Shown here: piece after piece, positions 1,417 to 53,717 of the stretch
Position numbering within the stretch: position 1 is the stretch's first letter
How the letters are laid out: every line of letters begins with the position of its first letter
NCBI GenBank assembly: GCA_030390025.1
Contig: CM059431.1
Span: 139,254,001-139,318,000, forward strand
Direction: 5' to 3'
Source of the DNA: Squalus acanthias
Lineage: Eukaryota
DNA length: 64,000 nucleotides
Notes under the pieces: model-generated
Seen by the model: only the letters and a program-made list of their open reading frames with translations
Told to the model about the DNA's origin: nothing
Databases searched by the model: none
Translations under genes and position numbers: made by a program

Positions 1417-1483
1417 ATGGGAGTAGTACTTAATGAAATAACAACGATTTACTACCCTATTCTTGCTGCTGTCGGCGTTCCTG
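1417..1483 (+). CDS. GPR139-like GPCR gene A, exon 1 (MGVVLNEITTIYYPILAAVGVP)
   Basis: ATG at 1417, 22 codons plus 1 nt, then a GTAAG donor at 1484. Phase 1 joins exon 2 in frame (GVP-V-NFVAIV). Homologous to exon 1 of gene B. Confidence 0.85.
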
Positions 1484-1744
1484 GTAAGCGCTTATACACA
1501 GACAGTAATTGCATAAATCGTTGGTAACAGTGTTTCTGTTAGTGTTGCATGTCTGACAGAACCGCAGCTCTTCTTTCCAGCTCTGGTACACAGTTTGTGA
1601 CCTGTGTTGTCAGTTCACCCCTAAGATTCCCCGGTTAATTAACGTGGTGCTTTCTTCCAAACTACAATCTTAAACAAAATTGCCGTGTTATTCTCTCCAC
1701 TGAATATCGTTCAGTCTTTTGTCCAGATCATATACTGTATGAGA

Positions 1745-2310
1745 TAAGATTTTTAAAATATTTGTTCTTGGGATATGGGCAAGGCCACAATCATTGTTCA
1801 CCTCTAGTTTCTCTCAGAAGTTTGTGGTGGGCTTTCTCCAAGAACTATTGCCGTACTAATGATGATGCATCTCGCACGATGGCATTGGTTAAGAATTGCA
1901 GGATTCTGACTCAGCAGCGATGAAGAGCACGATATAGGTGAAAGGTATGATTGTGTGTGACTGAAGGGGGTGGTGTTTGCACAGCGCTAATGCTCTCATT
2001 ATTCATGCTAGTAGAGTGCGCGTAGGGAGAAGTGTTCTCGACACAATCTTGATGAGTTCTTGCAGTGAATTGTACAGATCACACGCACAGCAGACCCCGA
2101 ACGCCAGAGGGAGAGCGGGTGCATATTGAATCGATTTGAAGTGCACTGCCCAAGCGAACTTCTCTGTTCTAGGTTTAGTTGAGCTTTTGCGGTGTTGCTG
2201 TTGCTGAACCCATCCAGACGATCGTTGAGTGGCCCGTCACACTCCCGACTTGATGCTTTCAAATGGTGGAGAGGCGTTTAGGGGTCAGATGCAGCGCCAC
2301 TCGATGCATA
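1745..2310 (-). mobile_element. Degraded 3' fragment of the LINE family at 3775-6600
   Basis: Visible similarity to 3780-4150 (gattgtgtgtgact.gaagg...ggtggtgtt; cttgcagtg; ttgagc). Confidence 0.6.
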
Positions 2311-2534
2311 TTGGTGCTCATTACCTGTAAATAAAGAGGGTTTAGGTTTCTCGGTGATACACTGATCCTGGGCAAGAGATAACATCAATCCGTTTCACTT
2401 TTCAATTGAAACTCTTTGGAATAATTCAGTAGGGCATTATTTGCCTAATTCAGTAGAAAATTAATCGGCTAATTCAATGGAAAATTAATTGAAATCATTC
2501 AGTGAAGAATTAATCAGCATACATTTGAAAACTC

Positions 2535-3770
2535 ACATTATGCTGCCGGATGATAACACTGAGGTGCAGCATGTAGATGAGAAATAGGATGGGGCCAAGG
2601 GTAAATCCTTGAGGGACACCATGGGTAACAGTGCGGGATCGGGAAGAGAAGCCATTGCAGGAGATTCTATCTTTACGGCCGGAAAGATAGGATTGAAAGC
2701 AGGCGAGTAAAATCCCATCAAGCTGGACGACGGTGGAGAAGCGTTGGTGCAGAATTTTATGGCCAACCGTGTCACAGGCTGCAGACAGGTGCAGAAGGTC
2801 TATGGAGAGGAAAGAAAAGTTGGAGATGGGGCGAAAGTTTGCAAGAACGGAGACGTCAAGGGTTAATTCTTGAGGAGAGGAGTGATGACGGCAGATTTGA
2901 AGGAAAGGGGGACAGTACCTGAAGTGAGAGAACCGTTCACAATATCAGCTGACATGGGAGCCCAGAACGAAAGTTGGGTTGTCAGCAATTTAGTAGGGAT
3001 AGTGTCGAGAGAGCAGGAGATTGGCCTCATTTATAAAATAAGCTTTGCAAGGGCAAGAGGGGAAAGAGGAGAGAAGTTAGAGTAGAATGAAAATTTAGCG
3101 ATAGGGCAGGGGGAAAACGGAGAACATGTAAGATCCGGTGGGCTAGTGGAAGGGAGGGAATTGAAAGCAGAAGCAGTGGAATGGATGTTATCAATCTTTT
3201 TCACAAAGACGTCCAGGAGCTCCTCCCATTTGTCGTTGTCATTGAGGGAGGGGGAGTCAAGGGAGGGTGTATTGAGAAGACATTTAGTGTTGGACAAGAG
3301 AAGCCTGGTGTTATTTATGCCTCCCTAGATGATCTTGGGATAGTGGGTGGTTTTAGTGATGGAGAGTAGGACCTGTTAGTGCTTTATCTGATCTAGCCAA
3401 ATCTGGTGATGTAAGATTAGACCAGTTGTCCACCAAAGACGTTCAAGTTTGCGTCCCTTGGACGTAAGGGTGTGGAGATCAAGGTCATACCAGGGGGAAG
3501 GACTAGGGTGAGCGAGTGTAATGATTGTTGTGGGGACAAGGGCATCAAAGGTGGTGGAGAGGGTGTGATTTAGTAAGTCAGTAGCTGCAGAGAAGTCATG
3601 AAGAATAGTTGGCCAAAGGCTAGATAGTTGGGATTTAGAAAGAGCAGTGGTAAGGGTCTTGAGGCAGAGATTTTTTTTCCAGTGGTTATTGGAAAAGAAG
3701 TGCGGTTATGAGATGTAAGGGGAATAGGGGTAGAAATTGATAAAAGGAAATGGTCGGAGATTGCCTTATA
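2535..3770 (-). mobile_element. L2 LINE fragment, EN/RT region (3' part of a split copy)
   Basis: Minus-strand remnants KAISDHF.., PTKLLTTQL..PMSADIVNGSL and GVPQGFTLGP. Confidence 0.75.
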
Positions 3771-3774
3771 CTTC

Positions 3775-6600
3775 TAAGTCAGGATTGTGTGTGACTTGAA
3801 GGAGAACTTGGAGCAGGTGGTGTTCCCATGCGCCTGCTGCCATTGTCCTTTCAGGTGGTAGAGGTCGCGGGTTTGGGAGGTGCTACCGAAGAAGCCTTGG
3901 TGAGTTGCCGCAGTGCATCTTGTAGGTAGTACACACAGCAGCCACGGTATACAGGTGGTGCAGGGTGTGAAAGGTTAAGGTGGTGGATGGGGTGCCAATC
4001 TAACGGGCTGATTTTTCCTCAATGGTGTAGAGCTTCTTGAGTCTTGTTGGAGCTGCACTCATCCAGGCAAGTGGAGAGTATTTCATCACACTCCTTACTT
4101 GTGCCTTGTAGATGGTGGAAAGGTTTTAAGGAGTCAGGAGGTGAGACACTCGCCGCAGAATACCAAGCCTCTGACCTGTTCTGGTTGCCACAGTATTTAT
4201 GCGGCTGGTCCAGTTAAGCTTCTGGTCAATGCTGATCCCAGGATGTTGATGGTGGGGCATTCGGCGATGGTAATGCTGGTGAATGTCAAGTGGTGGTGGT
4301 TAGAATCTCGCTTGTTGGGGTAGTCATTGCCTGACATTTGTGTAGCGTGAATGTTACTTGCCAATTAACAGCCCAAGTCTGAGCGCCCTCCAGCTCTTGT
4401 TGCATGCAGGCATGGACTGCTTCATTTTCTGAGGAGTTGTGAATGGCGCTGAACACAGTGGAGTTACCAGCGAACATCAGCATTTCTGAATTTATGCTGC
4501 AGGGAAGGTCATTGATGAAGCAGCTGAAGATTGTTGAGCCGAGGACACGGCCCTGAGGAACTCCTGCAGCGATGTCCTGCGGCTGTGATGATTGATCTTC
4601 AACGACCACAGCCATATTCCTTGGTGCTAGGTATGACTCCAGCCAGTGTTGAGTTTTCCCCCCGATTTCCATTGACTTCAGTTTTACTAGGGATCCTTGA
4701 TGCCAGACTCAGACAAATTATGCCTTGACGTCAAGGGCAGTCACTCTCACCTCACCTCTGGAATTCAGCTCCTTTGTCCATGTTTAGACCAAAGCTGTAA
4801 TGAGGTTGGGAGCCGAGTGGCGCTGGCGGAACCCAAACTGGACATCAGTGAGCAAGTTATTGGTGAGTAAGTGCCGCTTGATAGCACTGTCGCCGACACC
4901 TTCCATCACTTTGCTGTTGGCTGTGAATAGACTGATTGGGAGGTATTTGGCCGGTTTGGATTTGTCCTGCTTTTTGTGGACAGGACATACCAGGGCAGCT
5001 TTCCACATTGTCGGATAGATGCCAGTATTGTAGCTGTAGAGGAACAACTTGGCTACAGGCGTGGCTATTTCTGGAGCACAAGTCTTCAACACGACAGCAG
5101 GGAAGTTGTCGGGGCTCATAGACATTGCTGTATCCAGTGCGCTCAGCCGTTTCTTGATATCACGTGGAGGGAATCGAAATGTTGGAAGACTGTCTTCTGT
5201 GATGGTGGGTCCTCAGGAGGATTCCGATATGAATCAACCACTCGGCACTTCAGGCTGAAGATTTTTGCAAACGCTTCAGCCTTGTTTTCTGCACTCGTGT
5301 ACTGGGCTACAACATCATTGAGGATGGAGATATTCATGAAGCCTCCTCCTCCTGTTATTTGTTAAATGGTGCACCACCATTCACGACTGGATGTGGCAGG
5401 ACTGCGGTGCTTTGATCTAATCCGTTGGATGTTGGATCACTTAGCTCTATCTTTAGCATGTTGCTTCCGCTTTTTGGCATGTATGTAGTCCTGTGTTCCA
5501 GCTTCCCCAGGTTGCCACTTAATTTTAGGTAAGCCTGGTGCTGCTCCTGGCATGCTCTTCTTCACTTCTTATTGAAACAGTGTCGGTCCCCTGGCTTGAT
5601 GGTAATGGTAGAGTGAGGTATTTCCGGGTCATGTGGTTACAGATTGTGGTGGAATACAATTCTGCTGCTGCTGAAGACACACAACGCCTCATCGATGGCC
5701 AGTTCTGAGCTGTTATATATCTTCTGAAACTATCCGATTTAATACGGTGGTAGTGCCACACAACACGTTGGAGCGTGTCCTCAGTGCGAAGACGGGCCTT
5801 CGTCTCCACAATGATTGTGCGCAGGTTACTGCTACCAATACTGTCATGGACAGATGCATCTGCGACAGGTTTATTGGTGAGGACGAGGTCGAGTAGTTTT
5901 TTCCACCGTATTGGTTCTCTCACCAACTGTCGCAGGCCCAGATTGGAAGCTATGCCCTTCAGGACTCGGCCAGCTCGGTCAGTAGTGGTGCTACTGAGCC
6001 ACTCTTGTTGATGGACATTGAAGTCCACCCACCCAGAGTACATTAAGTGCCCTTGCTATTCTCACTGCTTCTTCCAAGTGATGTACTACACGGAGGACCA
6101 CTTATTCATCAGCTCAGGGAGGGAGCTAGGTGGTAATCAGCAGGAGGTTTCCATGCCCATGCTTGACCTGAAGCCATGAGAATTCATGAGGTCCGGAGTC
6201 AATGCTGAGGACTCCCAGGGCCAGTCCTTCACAACTGTATATCACTGTGCCGCCACCCCTGGTAGGTCTGTCCTGCCGGTGGGAGAGGACATACCCAATG
6301 ATGGTGATGGCGGAGTTTGGGACATTCCCTGAAAGGTATGATTCTGTGATTATTATTATGTCAGGCTGTCGCTTGATCAGTCTGTGGGACAGCTCTCCAA
6401 ATTTTCGAACAAGTCCCCAGATGTTGGTGAGGAGAACTTTGCAGGATAGACTGGTCTGTGTATGCCGTTGCCGTGTCCGTAGCCGGTGCCAAGGTCGATA
6501 CCGGGTGGTCGGTTCAGTTTTATTCTTATTATTGTGTTTCGTCGCGCTTTGTTACAATGGAGTGGCTTGCTGGGCCATTTCAGAGGGCATTAAGAGTCAA
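3775..6600 (-). mobile_element. Jockey/CR1-group LINE, nearly complete degraded ORF2 (APE endonuclease + RT), nested in L2
   Basis: ORFs with DFNVHQQEWL..LDLVLTN, PAVVLKTCAPE..YLPISL..QFGFR and GVPQGRVLG..FINDLP. Confidence 0.88.
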
Positions 6601-6601
6601 C

Positions 6602-7065
6602 TATGTTGACATGAAGGGAGAGATTAATTGAGAAAAGAAGGGCCGTGAACTCAAAGGAGGAAGAGCAAGATGAGTTGAGCTGAAGTTTGTAATCTTCGAG
6701 GATGAGAAGTCGCTCGATGGAGAGTCAGACGGAAGAAAGCAAAGCGGATATCTGATTGAGAAAATTGGCTTGTTATTTGGTTGTGCGGTACACAATAAGA
6801 ATTTTAAAAGAGAGACTTGAGGGGTGGACCAAGTTGAGATGCTCGAAGGAGCAGTAGTTGCTGGAGGAGTAGGGAGACACTCCAAGGTGTGATTTAGATA
6901 TAAGGGCTAGACCACCACCGCGGCGGTTTGGGCGTGGAATAGAGTGGATGTTATAGCGCGGTGGGGAATCATCATACAGGGGGAAGGTGTCATCACCCCT
7001 CTACCATGTGTCTGTCAATTCCATGATGTGAGTTTGATCGTCCACAACAAGGCCATTGGTGGCAA
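6602..7065 (-). mobile_element. L2 LINE endonuclease fragment (5' part of the split copy)
   Basis: Minus-strand translation IMELTDTW*RGDDTFPL..PRPNRRGGGLALI is an APE-type endonuclease N-terminus. Confidence 0.75.
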
Positions 7066-7935
7066 GGGAAGTGTGAAGTGATACATTTAGACAGGAAGAA
7101 GGAGTAGAGGCAATAAGGGAAGTGTGAAGTGATACATTTAGACAGGAAGAAGGAGCAGAGGCAATAAGGGAAGTGTGAAGTGATACATTTAGACAAGGAG
7201 AAGGAGTAGAGGCAATAACTAAATGGTACAATTTTAAAGCAGCTGCATGAACCTGGGTTGTGTTTACACAAACCTCGGGAGGTGGCGGGACAATCTGAGA
7301 AGCCTGCTAAAATGCACATTGCGTCCATGGCATTATTAATTGAGGAACAGAGTACAAAAGCAAAGAAGACATGTTAAACCTTTGTAAAGAACTAGTTAGG
7401 CCTCGGCTGGAGTATGATGTTCAGTTGTTGGCACCACCCTTACGTTAGGAAGGATGTCATGGTCTTGGAGAGGGTGCAGAAGAGATTTACTGGAATGCTA
7501 ACAGGGATGAGGCACTTCAGTTATGTGGAGAGACTGAAGAAGATGTTTTTTTCTCCTTATAGCTGATACGGTTAAGAGGAGATTTGACAGTGCTGTTAAC
7601 AATCATGATTGATTTTGACAGAGCAAAGAAGGAGAAATTGTTTACTGTGTCCGAAGTGTTGTTAAGCAGGGCACAGATTTAAGGTGATTGTCCAAAGAAG
7701 CAGAGGCGACTTGAAGAAACATTGCTTTTTACACAGCAAGTTGAAGCCGGAAAGGGAGGTGGAAGCAGATTCAATCTTAGCATAAATACTTGACGGGAAA
7801 ACATTGGCAAGGCTATGGGGAAAGAACTTCGGATTTTGATTAATTGCATAACTCTGTCAAAGAGCCAGCACAGACACGATGGTCCGAATGGCCTAATTCT
7901 GTGCTGTATCATTCCATGATTCTATGATTCTATCT
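7064..7935 (+). mobile_element. CR1 3' fragment whose 5' end is a 3 x 51-bp tandem repeat
   Basis: Units at 7064, 7115 and 7166 encode KCEVIHLDRK. CR1 tail ATTCCATGATTCTATGATTCTAT. Confidence 0.85.
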
Positions 7936-8039
7936 ACACTACTTACATTCCTAACTACTTTTGTGTTATCGAATAACTTGGATTTATAAGACAACATAAT
8001 ATTTGTTGTTGAATTTAATGAATAATCATTTGACAGCTA

Positions 8040-9400
8040 TACGAATGTACGGACATACGAACAATGACGGATAGGTAGAGATCTCTAGCCCGTCCAGCAT
8101 CTACTACACAATATATACACCCTTCATCTCAACCGAAACCATCTGATCTCCTGGGAGAGGTGGAAACCAGGTAAAAATCTAGGCCAGTTTGGGGGAAAAT
8201 TGGGGAAATTTCCATCAGACTAATCTTGGCGATCGAAATTAGTCCGGGAGATCACTCTGGTCCTGAATTAGCCGAAGTACCTTCCTTTGGTAAGAGATAA
8301 TGTCCGCCCCAGCCAGAAACCGTTCAGCTCTCGCTTGAAGGACTTTGGCTAATCAGCGTCCACCGCACTTGACGGCATCCTGTTCCAGTTGTCCACTATT
8401 CTCTGGGAAAAGAATCACCTCCTGACATCTAACCTAGAACTGGCCTTACACAACTTTGAAATTGTGACCTATGGTTCTACCTAATCTATTGAATTGGAAC
8501 AAACTGTCAACTGCATCACAATATATTCCCTTCATTATCTTATATACCTCAATCGGATCACCTCTATTTGTACGCTGCGCTAATGTGTAGAGTCCCAACT
8601 CTTTTGCCTATCTTGATAACTAAAATGCTTTATACTGGGAATTAATCTAATGGCCCTCCACCCTTTGCACCCTTTCCAAGGCCTAATTATCATCCACTAT
8701 GATAGGAGACCAAAAGTGGGCTGTGAATTCCAAGTGATGCAGGACCATAGTCTGGTACAAGGACAAAATAGTATGCTTCATCTTATGTACAATTGTCCCA
8801 TCAAAGAACCCCAACACCATATTCGCTCTAGCTGTTGCTTCACGGCATTGCTCATGTAGCTTTAGAGATATAAGCATTAGAATGCCCAGATCATTTTCTT
8901 TCTCTGGATTCTTTAATGTTTTTCCCTAAGGGTGTATGAATGTTGAGCATCCGTCCTGCCCACATGCACTTTTCCAAATTAACATCACTTGTCAGTCAGG
9001 AACCCATCTCCCAACACAAGATCCACCTGAAGCAGTTGAGCATCGTCTACAGTCCTAACACTCGCACCGATCTTAGTAACAATTGTAAAATTGCAGGTCA
9101 TGGCCCCAGCACCTACATCTAGATCACTATTAAAAGTAGTAAAACGCAATGTCCCAACACCAATCCCTACGGGACACTACTGATGACTGGTCTCCAAACA
9201 GGTCCAAATCCACCTATAACTACTTTTTGCCTACATCCTTCTAGCCAGTTCTCAATCCAGCTCAATATATTGCCAGCAATACCACAGCTTCCAATATTGT
9301 AGAGTAGCCTCTTGTGCAATAACTTATCAAATGTTTTTTTAGAAGTCTAACTATACAATATTTACTGGGATTCCCTCATCCACCATCTTGGTGACTTCGT
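8040..9400 (-). mobile_element. CR1 LINE 3' portion, degraded
   Basis: Minus-strand QCREATARANMVLG..LEFTAHFWSP and a GVP-GLVLG remnant. Confidence 0.75.
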
Positions 9401-9559
9401 CAGCATCAACTGATTTCAATCAATTAATAATTTATTGACGTAATATGATAATTAAATAACTGATAACTGAATTACAATGAATACATTAACTGAACAAATT
9501 TCTTGACTCAATAGGGTGCTGAAAAAGACAAAACAAATTATGAAAATATTTGATGTCCA

Positions 9560-11570
9560 GTCCCACCTGCTCCTTCCGTAGCCCGCATTGAAACATGAAC
9601 TTGCCCAGTCCCCATTGTGCCTACACGCTGCCCAGTCTCAATTTCACATTCGCTCGACACAGTCCCTAATGCCCTGGCCAATCCTCATTGTACCTCCTTC
9701 CTCCTCAGTCTCCATTGCTCCTTAACCCTGCCCATCCCATATTGTAACATAAGCCAAACCAATCCGCTTTGCAGCTTCACCCTGCAGTGTCAGCATTGCA
9801 CATTAAACCGATCATTCATCATTGTACCTTCACCCTGCACAGTCACTATTGTACCTTCAACTTGTGCTGTCCCCATTGTACCGTGACCCTGCTCTGTCCC
9901 CATTAAACATAATTCTGCACTTTCCCCATTGCACCTTCAACCTGCTCAGTGTGCATTGCACATTGACGCCTGCCAGCCCCCATTGCACATTTACCCCACT
10001 CAGTCTCCATTGCACATTTACCCCGCTTAGACTCCACTGCACATTCACACACTCGAAGCCTCCATTATACATTTATTCCGCTCAGTCTCCATTGCCCATT
10101 CACGCCATCCTGTCTCCCTTGCACATTCTCCTCGCCCAGTATCCATTGCACATTCACTCGCTCCCATCCTCCATTGTACATTCACCCAATCGCACCCCCA
10201 TTGCACATTTTCCTCGCCCAGTCTCCATTGCACATTCGACCCGCCCAGTCTCAATTGAATATTTTCTCTGCCGAGTCTCCATCGCCCATTCATTCCGCCC
10301 AGTCTCCATTGCAAATTCTCCTCGCCCAGTATCCGTTGTACATTCACACAATCGCACCCCCATTGCACATTCTCCTCGCCTAGTATCCATTGTACATTCA
10401 CCCAATCGCAGCCCCATTGCACATTCTCCTCGCCCAGTATCCATTGTACATTCACCCAATCGCAGCACACATTGTACATTCTCCTCGCCCAGTATCCGTT
10501 GTACATTTACCCAATCGCAGCCCACATTGCGCATTCTCCTCGCCCAGTATCCATTGTACATTCACCCAATCGCAGCACACATTGTACATTCTCCTCGCCC
10601 AATATCCATTGTACATTCACCCAATCGCAGCCCACATTGTACATTCTCCTCGCCCAGTATCTATTGTACATTCACCCAATCGCTGCCCCATTGCACATTC
10701 TCCCCGCCCAGTCTCCATTGACCATTTACCCAATCGCAGCCCCATTGCACATTCTCCCCGCCCAGTAGCCATAGTACATTCACCCAATCGCAGCCCCATT
10801 GCAAATTCTCCCCGCCCAGTATCCGCTGCACATTCTCCCCGTTCAGTCTCCATTGCACATTCTCCCTGCCAGTCTCCATTGCTCATTCTCCCCGCCCAGT
10901 CTCCATTGCACATTCACCCCGCCCAGTCTCCATTGCTCATTCACCCCGCCCAGTCTCCATTACACATTGACACTGCCCAGTCTCCATTGCCCATTCTCCC
11001 TGCCCAGTCTCCATTGCTCATTCACCCCGCCCAGTCTCCATTGCTCATTCACCCCGCCCAGTCTCCATTACACATTGACACTGCCCAGTCTCCATTGCCG
11101 ATTCTCCCTCTCCAGTCTCCATTGCACTTTCACCCCGCCCAGTCTCCATTGCCCATTCTCCCCTTCCAGTCTCCATTGCCCATTCTCCCCTTCCAGTCTC
11201 CATTGCTCATTCACCCCTTCCAGTCTCCATTGCTCATTCACCCCGCCCTGTCTCCATTGCCCATTCACCCCGCCCAGTCTCCATTGCCCATTCATCCCTT
11301 CCAGTCTCCATTGCTCATTCACCCCGCCCAGTCTCCATTGCCCATTCACCCTGCCCAGTCGCCATTGCTCATTCTCCCCGCGCAGTCTCCATTGCCCAGT
11401 CTCCATTGCACATTCTCACCTTCCAGTCTCCATTGCACATTCACCCCGCCCAGTCTCCATTGCCCATTCTCCACGCCCAGTCTCCATTGCACATTTACCC
11501 CGCCCAGTCTCCATTGCTCATTCACCCCGCCCAGTCTCCATTACACATTCGCCCTTCCCAGTCTCCTTGC
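9560..11570. repeat. 27-bp C-rich minisatellite (GCCCAGTCTCCATTGCTCATTCACCCC) with a 54-bp dimer in its middle
   Basis: 9-aa (PAQSPLLIH) and 18-aa (HSPRPVSIVHSPNRSPIA) periodicity in the ORF track. Lies in the intron of gene A. Confidence 0.92.
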
Positions 11571-11911
11571 TCTGACTCAGACTTTATCCATTTTGGTCCA
11601 GATTATGTGTTTAGCTCTGGTCGCTGTGCCAGTGCACGTTTCTTCTCTTAAATCAACGCTTCATCTTTACTGACCAGATTGACTTGTTTTTTCTTGCTCC
11701 AGGGTGGCTGGTGCTTTGTTAGTTTCATCAATACTACTGTCATTGAATTTATTATTGCCTTTCATTATTATTATAAACGCTTGTCTACATCCAGCAAAGG
11801 AATTCACTTCAATCGATGCAACAACAATCCAGAAATTTCATTCAAAATCCTTTCGAACGAATGTTGTTTGACAGTCTGGTGAAATATTTATAGTCTTTTT
11901 CTCTATTACAG

Positions 11912-12799
11912 TTAACTTTGTTGCGATTGTGGTCCTGTCCCGAGGAAATTGCGGTCTCTCGAAATGTGTGACTCTCTACCTGGTGGCCATGGCAGCGGCG
12001 GACCTCCTGGTTGTTGTCACCGATGTCATATTAAGGTGCATTGCTGATATTTATTTCCCTGTTTCATTCTTGACCATTAACCTCGTGTGCCGTCTCAACG
12101 CTGTCCTGATGTTTGCAGCCACAGAAACTTCAGTCTGGTTCACGGTGGTTTTCACCTTCGATCGATTTGTGGCCATTTGTTGTCAGAAGCTGAGAGCTAA
12201 ATATTGCACCGAAAAAACGGCGGCTATTGTTATCGCGGTGGTGAGTGTGCTGAGCTGTTTGCAAAGCATTCCCTGGTACTTTGTATCTGACCCTGAGTTT
12301 ATAATGGACAATGTACCCCGGGGTTGTGTCATGAAACCCACCTTTTTTTACTGCACCTGCGTGGGGAGCATTTGAAATACTTCACCTTGTTTTAACCCCT
12401 TTTATACCATTTATTCTGATTTTCCTGTTCAATGCTCTCACCGCCAGGCATATTTTGGCGGCCAGTAGGGTCCGCAAGGGAATCCGGGGCCGCAGCAATG
12501 GAGAGAATCACAAGGATCCAGAGATACAGAACCGAAAGAAATCCATCATTTTACTCTTCAGTATATCGGGCACTTTCATACTCTTATGGAGCACAGAAGT
12601 TGTATATTTTATCTCCCTGCATGTCACAAACGCCCAGTTCTATACAGCCAGTGTCCTTGAATCAGCCGGAATCATGCTTCAGCTGCTGAGTACCTGCACC
12701 AACGCGTGTATTTATGGCGTGACACAGAGTAAGTTCAGAGAGGAGCTGAAGAACGCAGCGAAATACTCCCTGAATCTGGTTTCTAAATTATTTCAATAA
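11912..12799 (+). CDS. GPR139-like GPCR gene A, exon 2 (TM1-TM7), with a +1 frameshift at T7 12343-12349 (pseudogene or assembly indel)
   Basis: Acceptor ctttttctctattacag|TT. Motifs NFVAIVVLSRGNCGLSKC, AMAAADLL, FTFDRFVAIC and CTNACIY. Removing one T gives ..TFFTAPAWGAFEILHLVLTPFIPF.., a 317-aa protein in total. AATAAA at 12955. Confidence 0.9.
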
Positions 12800-14789: not shown

Positions 14790-16690
14790 GTTCTGTCCCC
14801 CTCCTCCTCTGGCACATTCTCCTGCTTTGAGGATTTCACCTGTTCCCCTCACTTTTCACCTCTCATTTAAACTCCTTGTTCTGTACCAGCCATACAAGTA
14901 TCACACGAAGTTTCTCACCGAGATACCTTCACTGCTTTCCTCCCTCAGCCTCTGCACCAAGCGACTTCTCATGCTCGGTGATTTGAAGCTCCATCTCAAC
15001 TCATCATGCTCTTTCTTCTCTGAGTTCACAGCCCTCCTATCCTCCCTTAATCGCTCCCTCCATATAAACTCCCCTACCCATTTGATGGCCACCCCTTCAC
15101 CTTGCCCTCTCACGTGCCCTCGCAACTCGCATCATGTTAATCACAGATTAGAACATTCCATATCACTTCCTTGTATCGCTCCCCACCACATCCTCCTTCC
15201 TCCTTTCAACGCCACTTCCATATATGTCAGACCCTGGGGTAAAAATCTCTCCCCCAAGTCACTTTCAACTGCACATTCAAGTTCCCACTGTAAAGCTTTT
15301 GTTTCACCATTCAACGTGACATTTCTGCAGCTACCGATCTGCCCAATCACACCCTCACCTAAAACTTTGATGCCTTTGTCATCATTAAAACCATTCCTCT
15401 CTCTCTCTTACCCTGGTCGATTCCCCTGATAAGCCCATCATATCCGCTACCTTGAGTCTAAGGGATGCAAACTTGAACGTTTATGGAGGACTGCTAGTTA
15501 GTCATCCATCTTCAGGTCTGGCTGGACCACATAAAGTACTATCAGGTCCTGCTCTCCTCCGCCAAAACTGCTCACTTTTCAAGGATATCCTGGAATGCAA
15601 AGACAACTCCCAGATTTTTTCTCCGGAAACTACAGGCTTCTCACCCATCTTCCCTGCCTCCCAAACCTTCACCTCCAACAACAAGTGCGAGGAGCTCACG
15701 AACATCGTTGTCACCAACAGTTATAAATTACTCGCAGCTGCCTCTGCCGCTTCCCTCACTTCCCGTAACCCACCGGGCCAAACTCTTTCTAAGTTTTCCC
15801 CCTGCCCCAGCCCTGAACTGACCTATTTCTCTGGCTTTACTCCTATCGCCCCTCATTCTCTCTGCGAGCTCTTCTTTTCCATGAGATCCACTTCCTGCTC
15901 CCTCGACCCTATTCCCACTAAACTGCTGACCACCCAACCTCCCTTCCTGATCCCCATGTTAGCTAATATTTTTAACGGCTCCATCTCCTCAGGTAATGAC
16001 CTCCCCTTAATATCTGCCGTTGTCACACCTCTCGTCAAAAAACCTTTGCCTCCTCTGCTCTTGCAAACTACCTCCCCATCTTCAATCCCATTTCCCCTAC
16101 AAAGTCCTTGAACGTGCAGTCTCCTCCCAAAAACATGTCCATCTTTCCTGCTTTATCATAGCTCCAATCAGGTTTCCGCCTATCCCACTGTATCATCAAA
16201 TTCACAAATTACATCCTGCGTTACTGCGACCGTGGTAAACAATTTCTCCTCATCCTTTCCCACCTGTTTGCAGCCTTCGATACGGATGACCACAGCATCC
16301 TCCTCCAACGCCATTCTTTTTTCATCCATCTTGGTGGGACTTCAATCGCCTAGTTCCATTCTTATCTATCCAATCGTTGCCAGGTAATCTCCTGCAATGG
16401 CTTCTCTTTCCGCTGCCGCACCGTTACCTGTGGAGTCTCCTGAGAATCTATCCTTGGCCCCTCCAACTTCTCATCTACATCCTGCTCCTCGGTGACATCA
16501 TCCAGCAACACAGCTTGAGATTCCACATGAGCTCTGCCTCACCACCACTTCTCTCGAAACCTCCACTGTCATTACATTGTCATACTGCATGTCCAACATG
16601 CAGTACTGCATGAGCAGAAAGTTCCTCCAACTAACTAATGGGGTCCGAAGCCATTGTCTTCGCATCCCGCCACAAACTGTGTTCTCTGGG
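14790..16690 (+). mobile_element. L2 LINE, degraded EN/RT
   Basis: LLMLGDLKLHL, SCSLDPIPTKLL, and AAFDT.DH.ILL remnants. Confidence 0.85.
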
Positions 16691-17345
16691 ACCTAGGGAG
16701 AGAGTTCTTTCGGGGATTTATATTTAAATCCTCACATCAATAATAGAACCCAGGGAGAGAGTCCTATTGGGGATTTACATGCAAATCCTCTCAGCAATAT
16801 TAACACCCAGGGAGACTGGCCTATTGGGATTTACATGTAAATCCTCTCACCAATATTATTACCCAGGGATACTGATCTATTGGGATTTACATGCAAATCC
16901 TCTCAGCAATATTAGTACTCAGGGAGAATGGCCGATTGGAATTTAAATTTAAATCCTCACATCAATATTAGGACGCAGTGAGAGAGTACTATTGTGATTT
17001 ACATTTACATCACCACACCAATAAAAGGACTCCGGGAGAGAGTCCGATAGGGGATTTGTTTTTAAATCCTTTCACCAATATTAGGACTCAGGGAGAGAGT
17101 CTATAGGGGATTTGTTTTTAAATCCTCTCACCAATATTAGGATAAAAGAAGAGATCCTGCTGGGGATATATATTTACATCCTTTCGCCGTTATTATGACA
17201 GAGGGAAAGAATCCTTTTGAGATTTACATGTAAACATTCACCAATATTAGGACCCAGTGAGAGTTTCCTACTGGGATTTAAATTTAAATCCTCACACCAA
17301 TATTAGGACCCATGATGGGTCGCCTAATTTGGGATTTGCATTTGG
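16690..17345. repeat. ~56-57-bp tandem repeat, ~12 copies, each with the palindrome GGATTTACATGTAAATCC
   Basis: Units start at about 16693, 16750, 16807, 16862, 16918 and onward. Confidence 0.88.
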
Positions 17346-18690: not shown

Positions 18691-19674
18691 GCCAGTGAAT
18701 CTGAAGTCAAATTAACGCATCAAATGCCAAATTTGGCCCAGATACTAAACATCTCCCAATAGCTAGTTAGACTCTCACCTCGGCAAAATCATCGATTGAA
18801 GTGATTCTCAGTAAAGCTCCTCACATTTCCAATCATTGTTGAAGTTTCCCGTTTCTGGCCTTCGACACTGGGGACTTGGCCGCAACAGATCTTCTCTATG
18901 AACCTAGCGAACTTTCTCCAGTCCCAGTTAGTGTAGTGATGATTCGACTTATCTCTCTCCACCTTCCTGGGATACTGCTTAATCAAATAAACGTTTAAGA
19001 AAAACGAGATTCAAATTAATTAGAAAATATGTTACAGGAAAACAATGGGACTATTTTTTGACTATAAATATATTTAATTTGAAAATATTTACAATTTTTT
19101 GAAGTATTTACTTTACTGTTAAATAGTTCTTTCGTTTGCCCCTATAGGCGCTAAATTCACACACAGGAAAAATTCAGTTGGTTGCGCCTCCCGTTAGCGC
19201 CTTAAGAGGGCGCTAATGGGGCGCAAAGCCGCTGGCGCCCGGGCGCAGCGATGTTTGCGCTGCTCGGGAACTTAACTAGACATTGTGCGGCGGCGCTAAA
19301 CTTTACCGTCGCGACCACCTGCGCGCGCAGATTGTGACGTCATTCCATGGTGCAATGCCCTTGTGGCGCCCCGGAGCGGAAATTGAGTGGCGCCCCCTGC
19401 CTTACCGCCTGGCGCATCCAACGACCGGAAGACTGGAACGCTATCAATCGCTGTGGGGCTGGGGGGTGGCGCTATTTAAAGGGGGCCTCTTCCTGTCTTT
19501 TTCTGTGGTTGACATTTTTGCACCACTCGTTCTGAGAGAGAGAGAGAGATTCGGAGAGAGAGAAAGAGAGACTTCTGCATTGTGTCAACGCTTTGTGAGG
19601 TAGTTTTGCCTACTGATCCTAACTTCGCTGGTACTTTGGTTGCTGTCCTTCATAACTTTGCTTGCAAAGAGACT

Positions 19675-20836
19675 ATGGGGGCTGCACTGAATGGGGGCGT
19701 CGTCCTGCTCCAGCTGAATCGGAGGACACAGAGACGCAGAGAGAGAGTGGCAATGATGGCCAGACGGAGGAGGGCCAACAGGCGTCTGTACAGGAGAGCT
19801 TACCCTCCCAGGGTATACGGTGAACAGCTCTCCGACATTCATATGTCTGAGGAGCTGTGTTTGCGAAGGCTGCGATTCAGCAAGGAGGTGGTCACTGAGC
19901 TCTGCCACCTGCTGCAGCCAGATCTGCAGCCTCAACTGAGGTCCAGGACGTCTCTGTCGGTGGCAGTGAAGGTCACAGTGGCTCTCAACTTCTATGCTAC
20001 TGGCTCATTTCAAGCTGCTGCTGGGGACCTCGCCAATATCTCCCAGTTCGCGGTGCATTGATGCATCCGGCAGGTCACAAATTCCCTCTTTAAAAGGAGA
20101 CGAGAGTTCATCTCTTTCCCCATGACCCTAGACACATCAGCGTGACCGCGCTCTGGGCTTTGCGAGGATAGCGGGCTTCCCCATGGTGCAGGGCGCCATT
20201 GACTGCATGTATGTGGCTTTGCGTGCTCCACATGAGAATGCCGAGGATTTCCGGAACAGAAAGGGGTTCCATTCCTTGAATGTTCAGTTGGTCTGTGACC
20301 ACAGACCGCTGATACTCGCTGTCAATGCCCACTATCCTGGCAGCTGCCACGATGCTTTCATCCTGCGCCAGACTACTGTGGCAGAACTTTTCGAGGCACC
20401 GCATCAGCCAGTTGGTTGGCTTCTCGGGGACAAGGGGTATCCATTGAGCACCTGGCTGATGACACCGCTCCGTACGCCCAACACCCCTGCTGAGCTGCGG
20501 TACAATGAGAGCCATCAAGCTACCAGGAACATCATTGAGCGCACAATCGGCGTGCTGAAGCAACGGTTCCGCTGTCTCGACCATTCTGGAGGAGCCCTGC
20601 AGTACTCGCCTGAGCGAGTATCCAACTTCGTAGTTGTGTGCTGCATGTTGCATAAAATGGCAATCGTCAGGACACAGCCAATGCCACCAGGTCTTGGAGC
20701 ACCACCAGAGAAGGAGGAGGAAGAGGAGGAAGAGGACGAGGAGGATGATCATCAGCAGCACCAAGGCGGGAGGGCGGCCCACAATGGTGAAACTGCAAGG
20801 GCCGTCCGTCAACGGCTGATAGCAAGCCGCTTCTAG
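19675..20836 (+). pseudogene. Harbinger (HARBI1-like) DDE transposase, disabled
   Basis: [66 protein letters not shown] at 20059-20061 and a frameshift near 20130. Confidence 0.93.
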
Positions 20837-21148
20837 GGCCCCTGCTGTGGAAATGGCTTCTGCCATTGCTAACAACATCAATGAACCCAGCACGCAACCC
20901 CTAAGCCGGCCAAGGCACCAATGATTCCAAACACCAAACATGTATATTTTGAATACAAAAACTTATTTATTTTACAAACTCTGTGTGTGTCATTTCCTCA
21001 TGACAAACTCATAGTAATAAACACAAAAAAACAGTCATTAACATAACTGGTTCTCACAACCTGGAGATAATGTCCAAAACACTAGACAAAAGTTGGACCA
21101 TGAACCTCGGCCTTTAATAAAAAAATGACCAGCATTTTGTCACACCTC

Positions 21149-23071
21149 CTACTTTTTGCCCTTCGAGGGTGATCTCCTTCCCTTGCGCACTTCCCCCCTT
21201 CTAACCCTACTGCTCCTCCGTAATGGGACCTCAGTGGCTGCAGCAAGGCTGGTGGAAGGCTGCTGATTGTCAGACCCTGACACTGCAGATGCCCCTGAAG
21301 GACGGCCTCGACCAGTTCTGGGCCTGGAGGGCCCGGCTGCAGACTGCACCAACTCTGCATGGGCGGCAGCAGTCAGTCCTACAGGCGGTGGCAAGTGCAG
21401 TGGAGAAGTGACAGTGTTGGCAGCAGGAATGCTGTAATCGTGAGAGAGGACAGCAACTCCCTGCTCGACCGACACACTGGCACTCCCACGGGGCAGCACT
21501 TCAGCATCCGGAGCAATCTGCTGGAGCACAGATTGCTGGCCTGCTGCGGCGCGGTGAGAGCCCCGGGGACATGTGAACGAACCATCGAGGTTGGCAGCAG
21601 TCAGTGCTCGCGTGGCCTCAATCTGAGTCTGCATGAGAGCAGTCAGAGATGGGATCACGGCAGTCAGTGACTGAATTGCAGCACTAAGCTTTAGTGTGGC
21701 ATCCGCCTGTGCTACAGCGAAGTGCTCCACACTCCTTGCCAGTGACTCAATGCATTCGGGCACCCTTCCCACTGCACCCATGAGCTCAGTGTGCATGCCC
21801 ACCGCCTGTGTGTTCATTTCTGCGATCAGCCGCTCCTCCTCTGCGTCCATTGCAGTAGGAGTCGCTGGCATACTCTCCCTCTGGGGAGAAGGCCCCCGTT
21901 CTTCCCTACCCCCATGGCGTTGCTGCAGCCCGCTGGGTCCTGGAGCTTCACCCTCATCAGACCCTTCCCCCCTGCTCCCCTCCAGGGAAGGCGTGTTCCC
22001 AGTGTGGGCATGGGCTTCCTCGGGAGAGGGTGGCACTGATGCTCCGGCTTCCTCTTCCTCCTCGGCTGCAGCTTCACTCCCACTGGCAGCTTCAGGGCCC
22101 GTCTCCTCAGCTGGTGAATCACCATCTGAAAGCAGGGAGGTACAAGAGTGGCTTTAGCGTGAGGACAGGGTGGCAGTAAGGGAGGAATAAATGCAGCGAG
22201 TTAGCAAGTTGGATTGAAAGTGTCAAAGGCTGGTGTTGTGAGGGACCAGTGGAAGGACAGAGGACAAAAAGGTGATGACCTTACCATTGCTGTCCAGAAC
22301 GGGGTCGGCGTCTCCAGTGGCGACGGGACCGATCACCCGGCTTGCCACAATCCTGTGGACGCGCTCCTCAAGATCGCTGAGGGGTTGCAGCTGAGGCCGC
22401 CCTCCACCTGTCCGTTGCTGCTGTCTCCTATTATGCGCCAGCTTGGCCTGCAAGAAAAAGGACAGCATCTGAGTAAATATACAGCCATGGTCTTGCCTGA
22501 TGTGCCTCCCATAGGTGAATAGCCCTTACTGTATGCAGCCATGGTCTTGCCTGATGTGCCTCCCATAGGTTAATAGCGCTTACTGTATGCAAAGTGTGGA
22601 ATGCGTGTGTGTGTTTCATGAAAGGGCCATAGGTGTTGGATGAGTGTTGTGCATTGGGGTTTTAAGACCCTCTGGCCATAGAGTGAGGTTGAGATGGAGG
22701 GATGGAGAGGTATTGAGAAAAAGCCACTCACCCTGACGACCTGAGTGAGGTCGTTGAACTTTTTGCGGCATTGAACATGGGTCCTGGGCACCATGCTCCT
22801 GGAGGAAATAACAACAGAAAACGCTGGAAAAACTCAGCAGGCCAGGCAGGATCCGTGGAGAGAGAAAGAGAGTTAACGTTTCAGGTCGAAGACCTTTCAT
22901 CCTGGAGGAGATGCTCTGAGCCACCTCCCTCCACACTCTTCTGTACTCGCGTGGCAAAGGCCTCCTGCCACTCTCAGGGAAGAGTATAGATCTTCTGCGC
23001 TCCACCGCGCCAACCTGAGCATCCAAGGCCCGCTCGGTGAAGCGCTGAGCTCGTTCTCTCACCCTCTCCAT
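21149..23071 (-). pseudogene. Harbinger Myb/SANT-like DNA-binding gene, 3 exons (23071-22732, 22447-22285, 22125-21149), interrupted by a 103-bp insertion
   Basis: RAQRFTERAL..W.EVA..RT..QCRKKFNDL|AKLAHNRRQQQRTGGG. GT-AG introns in phases 0 and 1. Excising the insertion gives 458 aa with no stop. Confidence 0.88.
22807..22899 (-). mobile_element. Penelope-like pLTR fragment with a 10-bp target-site duplication
   Basis: TCCTGGAGGA at 22797-22806 and 22900-22909. Near-identical to 47384-47478. Confidence 0.9.
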
Positions 23072-24624: not shown

Positions 24625-25190
24625 GGTTAGGAACAGCATGGGTAAGACTGAGTGTAAAGTTCACTCAACACTGTACTATCCCAGGGCAGGTACGGCATGG
24701 GTTATTTACAGAGTAAAGCTCTATCTATAACGTGCAATCAAACCCTCCAAGGGCAGATACAACAAGGGTTTGTTCCAGAGTAAATTTCCATCTGCACTCT
24801 CCCCTCAAACACTCCCATGGCAGGTACAGGTCAGGTTAGCTACAGCGTAATGTTCCCTCTACACTTTCCAATCAAATACTCCCAGGGCAGGTAAAGAAAG
24901 GGTTAGATGCAGAGTAAAGCTCCCTCTACACTGGACCTTCAAACACTCCCAGGGCAGGTACAGGACAGGTTAGCAACAGCGTAATGCTCCCTCTACACCT
25001 TCCCATCAAATACTCCCAGGGCAGGTAAAGAAAGGGTGAGATACAGAGTAAAGCTCCCTCTACACTGATCTTTCAAACACTCCCAAGGCAGGTACAGCAT
25101 GGATTAGCTACAGATTAAAGCTTCCTTTCCACTGTCCCGCAAAACACAATCAGGGCAGGTGCGGCAGGGGTTAAATATAGTGTAAATCTC
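24625..25190. repeat. 67-bp tandem repeat, ~8 copies
   Basis: CTCCCAGGGCAGGTAC..GGTTAGATACAGAGTAAAGCTCCCTCTACAC recurs at ~67-bp spacing. Confidence 0.9.
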
Positions 25191-42923: not shown

Positions 42924-43001
42924 GTCTCTGTGGCGCAATCAGTTAGCGCGTTCGGCTGCTTAACCGTAAAGGTTGGTGGCCTTCGAGCCCTCCCAAAGAC
43001 G
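42924..43001 (+). pseudogene. tRNA-Asn(GTT) pseudogene
   Basis: GTCTCTGTGGCGCAATCAGTTAGCGCGTTCGGCTG..AACCG..AAAGGTTGGTGG..TTCGAGCCC..GACG, with small insertions in the anticodon and T arms; T4 downstream. Confidence 0.85.
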
Positions 43002-47260: not shown

Positions 47261-47383
47261 CATTGTGTTAGAGAATGATTTTTTCTGAGGACAGTGGAAT
47301 ATGGCAACTGATATTAGAAAAAGCGACCCCCCTTTGCGATTGGTTGGGCCGGCCCACATGATCCCAGGGACGGTTATGAACCG

Positions 47384-49350: not shown

Positions 49351-51998
49351 AACCACATCAGATTGAATGTGACACGGTAATGTAATCGTTAATTATTCAT
49401 GCCTTTGCTTTCCATATTACCTGTTGAGTTCGGATGATGTGGTTGATTGCAGGTCGCGTTCTCAGGATTGTAGCTGGGTTCAGAACATCGCTGACTAATG
49501 GAATTAAAACCTCCGCCTACTGCCTGACTCCTGCCTTAAATATTGTGGGTCGTCTGAATCGAGATAAATGAGAATGTGATTCTTGCACAGAACTGTCCGC
49601 ATCTAATGAGCAATTTCCCCAGAAGTTGGATGCCATCCGGATTGGCAGAGCCCGAGGACCTGCAATCAATTGTATTTTGGCTTTTGGATAACGTCAGGGT
49701 CAAGAAGAACGTTAAAGAGTTAATCACAGTAAGTAAATGGAGCCCATTCACAATTAAAGTACAAAGGCTTTTATTAGCGTAAGATTTTCAATAAGGCTCT
49801 TGAACATTGGAGTGAAGTGCCATAGATTTATTAAGCACATAATACACGCAATTTTATTTAAGTATACATTTAAAAGGTAGAAATTAGACCCACACCTGAT
49901 ATTGATTGGGTGGAGACCCAAACTTGTCACAGTTCTGAGTTGCTTAGGCCTTTAGCAAAACAATATTCATTTAAACTGCCAGTTTTCATGCATTTTTCTC
50001 ATTCCCTGTACTTGACAATCCACACAATCCTGCATTACAAGAGTATATAAAATTTAAAAAAAAATCCATATAAAGATAAATTAATTGAGATATATGATCG
50101 ATAGTTTCACTCTTGATTCATATAATTGCAATTGTACCAAATGAATCATTTAGTAATAAGTCCGTCTTTGTTTCTGTATCTACTGTACTAATTCAAAATG
50201 ATGATGGATGCCCGGATGTTTTGCTTTGCAGTACTGTCTTCCCACACTGTTACTAAATGATTAAAGTTCCCTGAAATTGATGAATCTTTTTGCAATGTCA
50301 TGAGTTTAATTAAATCGCTTATGACTTCATCCTGAAACTGACCGTCGCTGCAGCGTCAGCGCTGGCCCAGCAGCCAATGGTACTTTAATTAGATTTATAT
50401 GTCCCTGCATAACAGGAAAAGGCTAAAGGTTTACATTGCTACAATAAAAAGACAAACCAATACAGTATAGCTTTAGAAGAATGTCGGGTGGTTTGATTAA
50501 CCATTTCCTTACATTGCATCCTTTGTTGGCGTTAGAATATTTATGGTCAATACTTACCAATTTTTCATCAGCATCATATATCTATCTCGACCTATTCTAT
50601 GGCACAGGTCTCTGCACCTGGATTTTACATATGTTCTCACTCTCCAGAACCAGATTAAACATTTCATGCAGTGGTGTTATCAGTGTGACTGACCATGTCT
50701 TGGAACCTATTCTTCATCAAGTATTTCACAGGCTTGTTGCTTTATGTACGATATGTCACTTCTGCACACACAGCGCTTCCAAAGACTATGCCGCGCGAGC
50801 CATCCGTTACAAGCCATCCCTCTCCTTTTTGGTTATCATGTAGAACGACCAGGGGCATGGAGGTGTTTGATTAGAATCTCCCCCTGCATGGTCCTGATGT
50901 TTTTGGATAGTGGCCAAGCTATCAAATACAAACTTCTCATCGTTCAGTATAAAAAGGGACACAGCCATTTCCAAGAAAAAGTTATCAATTATCCATCTTA
51001 ACTAAACTTACCTGACTTTCACTAGATTGTGCTTTGACAGCAGATTGATATATTTTGTCAAGTGGTACCCAGGTGATTTAAGTTAAGAAGGGACTTGGCA
51101 GTATAGATAGAAGCAAACTGCTTCCATTAGTTGAGGGATCAAGGGCTAACGGCCAGAGATACATATATGTTAGAGATTTAGAACGAAAGTAAGTAGGAGC
51201 CACTTCACATGGAGAGTTGTGAGACTGGAAATAACGGAGGCAGAAATTGTCATGTATTGAAGATTAAATTATATACATGGATGAATAACAATAGGTTGAA
51301 TTGATGTTGAAACCGGGCGGGTAAAGTGGATGGAACTAATTACTGGGGTGGAGTGAAAACGCCAACAAGGACTGATTGGGTCGAATGGACTGTCCCCTGT
51401 TTAACATTCCAACATTTTGATGACCAGGTGAGATTTTCAGTAAATATCTGTGAACAAAGATGTCTAATGTCACATTGACGAGTCAAGTTCCTACTGTCTC
51501 CATCATTAGACACTGATCAGGAGACAGGGCCCCGTTCTATTGGTCCAGGAGATACTGGGCGGCGGAGTCTGATGGGGAGACCAGCGCCTGCAACATTCAC
51601 ACCAAGATTACAGAATTACAGGTAACCACCATTGTAACACATTGTTTCTACACTGAAGGAAAAATTACCTGTTAATTAAACTGGGGCGTCTCATTCCAGT
51701 ACCTGCGGTGTGAGGCAGTTAATGCTGACGCCCACATGTTCTACTTCACTGCTGAAGCTCAGTCATGACTGTTCTCTTTGAATCTTGAGCGGGAAGAGCG
51801 CTGTTTTAGAAAAAATCGATTCTGTTCACCCGGGGAAAGCAGCAGAGATCAAACACACGGCAGAATGTCACGGAAATTTGTTCTGATACCTGTTTACTTT
51901 AACAACAGCAAACCCTTTCCCTCCTAACAGAAGACGGCCGTTCTAAAAGGGAATTTTAATTTAACTCTAGTTTGGACAGGAAGTTTCCGGGTATTTTT

Positions 51999-52896
51999 TC
52001 ATTTTCGAAAAACAATAAACTTCCATGGAGATTTAATCAGCTTCTTCAGCTCTGCCCTGAATTTAGTTTGAGTAGCTGCATAAATACACGTGTTTGAACA
52101 GGAACTCAAATACATGAGCATATATCCGGTTGCTGTGGCGATGTATGCGGGAACTGAATAATCGCCTCGGTAAAACGCGGTTTTTGACAGTCTGGTAGTT
52201 AAATAACTAACAACAGATGTCAGCCACAACAGTATAAAACTGCCCGATACACTGAAAAGTAAAATGATGGATTTCCTTTGGTTCTCCATCTCTGGATCGC
52301 TCTGATTCTCACTGCTGTGACCCCGAAATCCCCTGCGGGCTCTACTGGCCACTAAAATACGTCTGACTTTCAAACAATTAAACAGTAATATCAAAGCAAA
52401 TGCAAGCCAAGCAATGAAAATGCTTTCTAACCAGTAGTACGCGACACTTGCAGCCGATGATAAAAACTCCACTCTGGCGCGGCAACCCCAGGGAACATTG
52501 TTAATTATTCGCTCAGGTTCATATGCAAACCAAAAAGGGAGGCTCTGTAAACAGATCAGGAGAGAGACCGTTGTTATAACCGCGGCCGCAGTTCTCACAG
52601 TGCAATACTTGGTTTTAAACTTCTCACAACATATAGCTACAAATCGGTCAAATGTGAATGAGACTGTAAACCACACCGACAAATAAAGGTGAAACATTGC
52701 ACATATATAATGATCTTACAAACGGCAGTTAACGACAGGAATGAATGTGGAAAGTGATAACGTATAATGCGGTTCACTAGTATATTGATGATCATGACCA
52801 GTAGATCTGCTGTTGCCATGGCCACCATGTAGACAGAGATACATTTGGAAAGGCCGCAATTTCCTCTGGAGAGAATCACGATTGCCAGTAGGTTCG
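51999..52896 (-). CDS. GPR139-like GPCR gene B, exon 2, with a -1 frameshift near 52685-52689 (pseudogene or assembly indel)
   Basis: Acceptor ctctttctcacag|CG. Motifs ANLLAIVILSRGNCGLSKC, AMATADLL, FTFDRFVAIC, VPWGC and SNTCIY. One added base gives 322 aa in total. Confidence 0.9.
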
Positions 52897-53647
52897 CTGT
52901 GAGAAAGAGGGTCAAGAGGTCAGTAACGGGGTCATTCAGGTAAATCTCACAGCATATTGTGGGGAAATGTTCAGATGTGTCCCTGCTTAGGGTTATGCAC
53001 ACGGATTGTTATCATGAATATAGGCGAGGGTTAACGTATGTTGTTTAACATAAATTATTCATTGGGCATTCAATATAGAGGGACAAAAAATCCATCATCC
53101 TTCCAGCATACTTCAGTCAGTCTTTGTCAAATACTAAAAATAATTTCACGGCAATTTATGGAAAGATATAATTCAAATGAAACATTCAGCTGAGAGAAAA
53201 ACGTTCAATTTATGTCCAAATTCTGCCGAGGGGAGTGGAGCATCTTCTTCAGTGGAAATTATTTCTCAAAATATCTTGCAAAGTCCTCTGTTGGGTGGAG
53301 GTGGTTTGCAGTTCGAGGAATTATCACATTAATATAGACAGGGAACAACGGCACAAATGAGGTGAATATTATAGACACTGAGCAACACGTTCTTTAGTGA
53401 TCTATGCACGGTTGGAGAGCCCGGGGAATTAGCCTCGCCCTCCCTCAGTATAGGGAGGAAGGTTGAGCGCCCGGTACAAACGATCTGCCCACCAGAACAG
53501 CGGCCGCGCGTTCTCGTAGGATTCCCGCTGATATTCGGAGACTGATCCCGGTTGATGAATGAATATGCATTGAGGACATTCTCGGAATATGTTGCATTAA
53601 CACTCAGATAGTCAACAGCTATTAGGCAACAGGATACATTGACTTAC

Positions 53648-53717
53648 CGGGAACGCCAAAGGCTGCGAGAAAATGATAGTAAATCTCCTTTATCTGTAGA
53701 ATTGCTGGCCGTGCCAT
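53648..53717 (-). CDS. GPR139-like GPCR gene B, exon 1 (MARPAILQIKEIYYHFLAAFGVP)
   Basis: ATG at 53717, 23 codons plus 1 nt, GTAAG donor, 751-bp phase-1 intron. Same intron position as gene A. Confidence 0.88.

Follow-up and report, generated by a model that had tools for sequence, protein, structure and literature searches.

We analysed a 64,000-nucleotide stretch of the Squalus acanthias genome (hereafter the window; positions 139,254,001-139,318,000 of contig CM059431.1, labelled C7 here, in the 3.71-Gb, 3,882-contig assembly GCA_030390025.1), which contains two genes, A and B, for class A G-protein-coupled receptors (GPCRs) from a very large family of sharks and rays. Each gene has two exons, and the lengths of 317 and 322 codons given in the initial annotation were recovered from exon lengths and signatures once a 1-nt frameshift in each gene was allowed for. 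Gene A lies on the forward strand. Its exon 1 (1417..1483; 22 codons plus one base) encodes a short N-terminus and the first half of transmembrane helix 1 (TM1) and ends at the donor GTAAGC; a 10,428-bp intron (1484..11911) follows, containing fragments resembling long interspersed nuclear elements and a 27-bp tandem array (9926-11570) that yields long spurious open frames; exon 2 (11912..12799) runs from the second half of TM1 to the C-terminus and matches 7tm_1. Gene B, on the reverse strand, comprises exon 1 (53717..53648; 23 codons plus one base, donor GTAAGT), a 751-bp intron (52897..53647) and exon 2 (52896..51999; second half of TM1 to the stop, 7tm_1). Both introns are phase 1 and GT-AG and follow GVP at the same codon, as had been described; the architecture called identical is therefore so in codon position but not in intron length, which differs 14-fold. 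Introns at 24 loci of the gene B clade measure 667-871 bp. The distant exon 1 of gene A, placed 10.4 kb upstream from the beginning, is supported by a Heterodontus RefSeq protein (P0001) that is 78% identical over exon 1 and 77-80% over exon 2, by a 99.8% identical exon 1 copy at C7:139103113, 152.3 kb upstream and equally spaced from the twin exon 2, and by 1,369 genome matches of an exon-1-plus-donor motif against none for its control (the controls of this and the three coding motifs below were reversed patterns). Both genes carry LSRGNCGLSKC (11935, forward, in gene A; 52873, reverse, in gene B), together with DRFVAICC, EN..DPE, KSIILLFS and N.CIY.

Both window genes are broken as assembled, and each frameshift is missing from a ~99% identical twin elsewhere. 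In gene A, a run of seven T at 12343..12349 (forward strand), against six in the twins, brings a stop after codon 176; in gene B (reverse strand), one base at about 52686 is absent relative to loci L032, L033 and L034, and a stop follows codon 109. Open twins of gene A lie 152 kb upstream on C7 (L002) and on contig C3521 (L003), and the window forms one arm of a 152-kb duplication that is 99.55% identical around gene A. L032, the tandem twin of gene B, has the base at ~52686 and has lost another 36 bases away, and the C3521 twin keeps both. A DNA run mapped on gene B gave one insertion row at 52689, at a depth of 158 of 935. The private frameshifts may thus be true mutations or consensus errors. 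A third, decayed family member (L068; C7:139251219-139252145, reverse strand) precedes the start of the window by 1.9-2.8 kb, in head-to-head orientation to gene A; it carries stops and a frameshift, and its first exon was not found.

The two genes belong to distant subfamilies; identity between their intact twins is 48.6% overall. It falls from 64% in the inner loops to 45% in the outer loops and 16% in the pocket, and the divergence is not specific to TM3-TM5 as first claimed, with 41% in TM2 and 56% in TM4 (38% in TM5). The gene A subfamily is small in this genome and is kept in Heterodontus (83%) and Scyliorhinus (76%) with support of 100/99. The gene B subfamily dominates this part of C7.

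The family belongs to class A. The intact twin L002 matched 7tm_1 above the cut-off (E 2.7e-21), and no family protein scanned matched 7tm_4 (olfactory receptors, PF13853) at E<=0.001; in a control with an olfactory-receptor profile, three of the 128 candidates scored reached E<=1e-20, and all three lie elsewhere. The predicted structure of P0001 has seven helices (mean predicted local distance difference test score, pLDDT, 86.7), and its top fold matches are all class A; the best PDB match was human GPR139 both by fold (7vug) and by sequence (E 1.5e-10). Family members retain D2.50 and W6.48 (100% each), DRF (94-100%), R3.50 (99-100%), N7.49 and Y7.53 (99%) and Cys3.25 (93%), and the cysteine of the second extracellular loop (ECL2) is kept as well. 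Pro6.50 and Pro7.50 are nearly universal in class A; both are Thr in 93-94% of family members, which may mean altered activation or basal activity, and the amphibian relative described below retains Pro6.50. GPR139 and GPR142 are class A receptors activated by L-Trp and L-Phe, and GPR139 couples to Gq or Gi/o. The family, GPR139 and GPR142 share a phase-1 acceptor one codon before Asn1.50, which makes their common descent solid; together with the best-match relation, this places the family within the wider GPR139/GPR142 group.

The initial label of both genes as GPR139-like was right for this wider group and wrong as a statement of orthology. The genome has its own GPR139 (contig C18) and GPR142 (C24; 93% identical to that of the white shark), one copy each, and genes A and B are only 20-24% identical to the former. 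Approximately unbiased tests on 25 rows rejected the grouping of the family with GPR139 (p 5.4e-6) and with GPR139 plus GPR142 (p 0.0033). In the tree (LG+C20, 47 of the 63 aligned rows), GPR139 and GPR142 grouped with each other on a separate branch (100/100). The shark family paired with an amphibian/sturgeon branch (100/99), and these two together with a coelacanth/teleost/crocodile branch (96/92), with amphioxus relatives outside; in no case did a characterised receptor come out as a 1:1 orthologue. The amphibian/sturgeon gene, labelled 'probable GPR139' (XP_031757816.1 in Xenopus, XP_069092602.1 in Pleurodeles, RXM35349.1 in Acipenser), is sister to the family but differs from it in having one cluster per genus and a nearly invariant pocket. 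A protein search with it gave 25 matches: one cluster from each of 20 amphibian genera (identity 66-100%), one sturgeon and four sharks or skates, and by this list the amphibian gene is apparently single-copy. The Xenopus protein was 30-36% identical to all 118 shark copies scored, none standing out. For the coelacanth protein, by contrast, the genome has one clear orthologue (62%). The most likely interpretation is therefore that the shark copies are all co-orthologous to a single gene of bony vertebrates, which stayed conserved in amphibians and sturgeon. Two further single GPR139-related genes were found at C17:37413763-37414743 (62% identical to the coelacanth orphan) and C9:120526322-120527191, which would seem to bring the number of lineages of this group in sharks to five. 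The accessible text of Rinne et al. (2019; PMC6504862) describes three fish/coelacanth orphan subtypes under GPR139/142, GPR210 among them. The coelacanth/teleost/crocodile branch beside the family may correspond to GPR210A/B. That text mentions no shark or chimaera and reports no expansion.

All family counts reported here are motif counts. The inner loop 1 motif, matched exactly, occurs 1,271 times in the genome (control 0), the TM3 motif with at most one mismatch 2,711 times (control 2) and the TM7 motif 1,889 times (control 28). Half of gene A used as a query returned 3,946 candidates and gene B returned 4,287, and the 150 scored for each were 59-100% and 67-100% identical, respectively. 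Among contigs C1-C31, matches were seen on 19, and numerous small contigs carry them too; the cluster around the window extends to 153.3 Mb of C7. These counts suggest roughly 2,000 or more family copies, far from the one or two that would have spoken against the initial proposal. To gauge intactness, every fifth row of the TM3-motif list was sampled (exact matches on C1-C7 only): exon 2 was open at 9 of the 19 loci fetched and, with gene A as row 100, in 9/20 (95% interval 23-68%). Applied to the 2,711 matches, this share gives about 1,200 open copies (620-1,850), a figure that haplotype duplication could halve. The open share from score-ranked lists (50/65 loci) was discarded as biased toward intact copies. 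One clade, marked by 'GESPRDPEME' (L063-L067 and L087), is very homogeneous, with 726 motif matches that lie mostly on small contigs; it may represent a recent burst or under-collapsed haplotypes.

Such observations raise the question of an assembly artefact, with a count inflated by haplotypes duplicated on unplaced contigs and frameshifts that stem from errors in the consensus. Many matches indeed lie on small contigs, only 39 exact matches of the 726-match clade are found on C1-C30, some pairs score identically (L038/L039), and the gene A frameshift sits in a homopolymer. We nevertheless consider this explanation highly improbable: 71 of the first 100 inner-loop-1 matches listed lie within 7.8 Mb of C7 (137.1-144.9 Mb), copies span 59% to 100% identity, independent RefSeq annotations of other species contain the family, and haplotype duplication would at most about double the count. 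Protein clusters tell the same of other species: 2,254 of 4,192 candidates matched at E<=0.001, and the top 120 comprise one unnamed cluster and 119 named ones from 13 shark and ray species, with 113 automatically named GPR139. Among the groups compared, the expansion is seen only in sharks and rays.

The family has kept its core and changed its pocket. According to the accessible parts of two studies, GPR139 activation requires F109, H187, W241 and N271 (PMC5430874) and a positive charge at 6x51 (PMC8807744). The full set of five ligand residues (F3.33, H5.43, W6.48, R/K6.51 and N7.38) is present in 0/136 family proteins, and eight have four of them; all five are kept in 120/120 proteins of the GPR142 set, and four, with Lys6.51, in 20/20 amphibian proteins. 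The twin of gene A keeps three and that of gene B one. Position 6.51 in the family is variously Q (26%), R (18%), L (9%), Y (8%) or E (7%), and the amphibian gene retains F3.33, W6.48, K6.51 and N7.39. The ratio of pocket entropy to that of other helix positions was 2.27 in 23 copies of this genome and 2.30 in 84 proteins of other species (p 4e-8 and 5e-6), compared with 0.19 in 20 amphibian and 0.58 in 75 GPR142 proteins. Ratios of nonsynonymous to synonymous substitution rates (dN/dS) over whole genes were 0.56 in 15 A-like genes and 0.48 in 18 B-clade genes; by region, the A-like ratio was 1.3 in the pocket, 1.0 in the outer loops, 0.4 in other helix positions and 0.3 in the inner loops. 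In a site model, twice the log-likelihood difference (2dL) for the A-like genes was 101, with 7% of sites near 4, and 14 of the 15 high-posterior sites fall in the pocket or outer loops, 3.29, 3.32, 6.51 and 7.39 included (Fisher p 1e-8). The helix core and inner loops are under purifying selection and the pocket is hypervariable. Entropy, dN/dS and motif counts thus bear out the early proposal of a clustered birth-and-death repertoire with a conserved inner face and a variable pocket.

A mostly non-adaptive expansion was also considered, in which a recombination-prone cassette of gene plus satellite multiplies, only some copies matter and pocket change reflects relaxed constraint. A 26-bp satellite of 269 copies (54169..61165, no strand assigned) does occupy 7 kb directly upstream of the gene B promoter, and 11 of 20 position-picked copies are broken. 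The 152-kb duplicate, 99.55% identical around gene A and with private frameshifts, the 726 matches of a single homogeneous clade and the pocket dN/dS of the B clade, about 0.9 against 0.3 elsewhere, would be expected as well. However, no satellite unit (<=5 mismatches) was found within 4.9 kb upstream of gene A, so the satellite does not closely precede every family member. Whole genes at 0.48 and 0.56, with core and inner loops at 0.3-0.4, do not look like genes free of constraint, and A-like values above 1 are concentrated in the pocket and outer loops. The expansion is moreover present in 13 shark and ray species, with the gene A subgroup kept in Heterodontus and Scyliorhinus. Taken together, we regard an expansion of this kind as unlikely.

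The window also contains candidate regulatory and repetitive elements. A 10-base promoter motif has just two window matches, one per gene: at 1266..1275 (forward strand), 151 bases upstream of the gene A ATG, and at 53854..53863 (reverse strand), 146 bases upstream of the gene B ATG. It occurs in 24/24 B-clade promoters and is common to A and B despite proteins from distant subfamilies, and it is a possible cluster-specific regulatory site. As a family-wide element it was rejected: the genome has 1,048 matches against 705 for the control, and the motif is dense in the C7 cluster and absent from the C1 cluster (98.9-99.7 Mb). Gene B has a TATA box at 53797..53802 (reverse strand), 85 bases upstream of its ATG, and of the 24 B-clade loci at which exon 1 was detected, 23 have TATAA at -76 to -85. 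A transposon at 19513-22525, which from its layout we take to be Harbinger-like, contains one frame that matches the DDE_Tnp_4 transposase (20132-20833; E 5e-38) and a second in opposite orientation. Besides the satellite, tandem arrays with units of 27, 56, 67 and 60-61 bp lie at 9926-11570 (the array in the gene A intron), 16689-17312, 24679-25186, 26290-27814 and 30299-31238.

We favour, at an even chance, the reading that the family is a birth-and-death repertoire of chemoreceptor type working in chemosensory cells. Genes A and B would then be recently broken (or mis-assembled) copies within a repertoire of short class A GPCRs shared by sharks and rays, which grows through segmental duplication and loses copies through frameshift and stop. 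The ligand of the ancestor may have resembled an amino acid or a peptide and have sat in a pocket of GPR139 type, as suggested by F3.33, W6.48, K6.51 and N7.39 in the amphibian gene. In shark copies the G-protein side is conserved (D2.50, DRF, W6.48, NxxxY) and the pocket has diversified; different copies might therefore sense different small polar molecules or peptides. As a guess, the site of action could be the nose, mouth, skin or sensory neurons, with coupling to Gq or Gi/o as in GPR139.

Several points weigh against this proposal. First, support for the shark family as a clade that excludes the amphibian gene is weak (81/62), the 32 pocket positions come from a generic class A list mapped by alignment, and the site test was our own grid implementation on paralogues chosen by similarity, in which gene conversion can inflate the signal; the 18 B-clade genes gave no significant positive class (2dL 2.7, p 0.25). 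Second, the search for expression found no spliced read. For gene A no RNA dataset was listed, which is evidence neither way, and for gene B no splice joint was seen in three runs of unknown tissue that carry the same species label and were guessed to be RNA. These runs gave 19, 13 and 11 contigs for gene B, none at >=95% identity and nearly all in exon 2. The loose ends shown for them point mainly to the 'GESPRDPEME' clade, whose 726 matches compare with 2,711 for the TM3 motif. A minority status of this clade, which would have favoured real transcription, had to be rejected, the clade being large and homogeneous, so DNA carry-over explains the run signal as well as transcription does. Third, V2Rs are treated as the olfactory family of catsharks in the accessible text of two studies (Mayeur 2024, PMC11979771; Syed 2023, PMC10116579), and a term search of the main texts of both did not find GPR139. 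Catshark olfactory neurons are there described as nearly all Go- and TRPC2-positive, attributed to V2Rs (PMC10116579); such neurons would fit a Gi/o- or Gq-coupled family as well.

A further point concerns immune or barrier surveillance, where receptors on leukocytes or epithelia would respond to a variety of peptides or metabolites from microbes, a task of formyl-peptide receptors and MRGPRs in mammals. The closest characterised relatives, GPR139 and GPR142, are amino-acid and peptide sensors of the brain and of the gut and pancreas, and repertoires of about 1,000 GPCRs are typically sensory and not immune. The same selection pattern is expected under surveillance, however, and the variable pocket fits immune receptors equally well, which counts against the chemosensory reading. 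In addition, Tan 2021 (PMC8455134) reports that cartilaginous fishes lack the MAS1-related families of GPCRs, which would leave this niche open. We therefore regard an immune role as a real, though less probable, rival. Receptors for diversified own peptides, whether pheromonal, reproductive or neuroendocrine, were considered too. GPR139 reportedly responds to ACTH/MSH peptides, atlas look-alikes of the family include FMRFamide-receptor-like clusters at 0.96-0.98, and Cys3.25 (93%) and the ECL2 cysteine are retained as in peptide receptors. Yet we know of no co-expanded peptide family that would match, none having been searched for, and loss of half of the copies is unusual for endocrine receptors, which makes this account very unlikely.

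The chemosensory repertoire that we favour can be compared with known systems. Like GPR139 and GPR142 (PDB 7VUG), the family has W6.48 throughout, and His occupies the H187 position in 67/136 proteins. It differs from them in having R6.51 in only 18% and N7.39 in 9% of members, Cys3.25 in 93% (absent from GPR139/142), Thr for Pro6.50 (93%), almost no N-terminus, and thousands of copies instead of one each. The clusters on many chromosomes, the many pseudogenes, the short N-terminus, the mostly single-exon coding and the variable pocket on a conserved core are shared with the OR, TAAR, V1R, V2R and T2R families and with MRGPR and FPR. In contrast to these, the family has a separate ancestry (7tm_1, no olfactory model), and sensory expression is what defines those families. 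Cartilaginous fishes have the smallest vertebrate repertoire of complete olfactory-type genes, 43.8 on average (20-62), in the accessible text of Policarpo 2024 (PMC10869828), and that of a shark genome paper (PMC8455134) notes a paucity of GPCRs. Our literature searches, in which most subscription papers were not covered, found no description of the family. GPR139 was also absent by term search from the main texts of PMC8455134, 10.1101/2022.10.17.512540 and PMC10869828 and from the preprint of PMC11979771, and the 24 supplements of PMC8455134 contain one GPR142 orthogroup row. The family is thus likely absent from print, and its sequences are already public as mislabelled gene models under the RefSeq label 'probable GPR139'.

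Both window genes are damaged copies, and the interest rests with the family. By the estimate above, about a thousand open receptor genes of one family are hidden in this genome behind the automatic name 'probable GPR139'. Be its role sensory or immune, the repertoire is of the size of mammalian ORs and of independent origin, and the conserved counterpart in Xenopus makes its ligand and site of expression testable. More tentatively, and with less confidence than in the chemosensory reading itself, the family may be the seventh family of chemoreceptors in vertebrates and, in sharks and rays, the main repertoire for odorants or skin chemicals, with about a thousand working receptors derived from one amino-acid or peptide sensor that persists in frogs and salamanders as a single gene. 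If this were true, it would overturn the idea of a shark sense of smell based on about 40 receptors.

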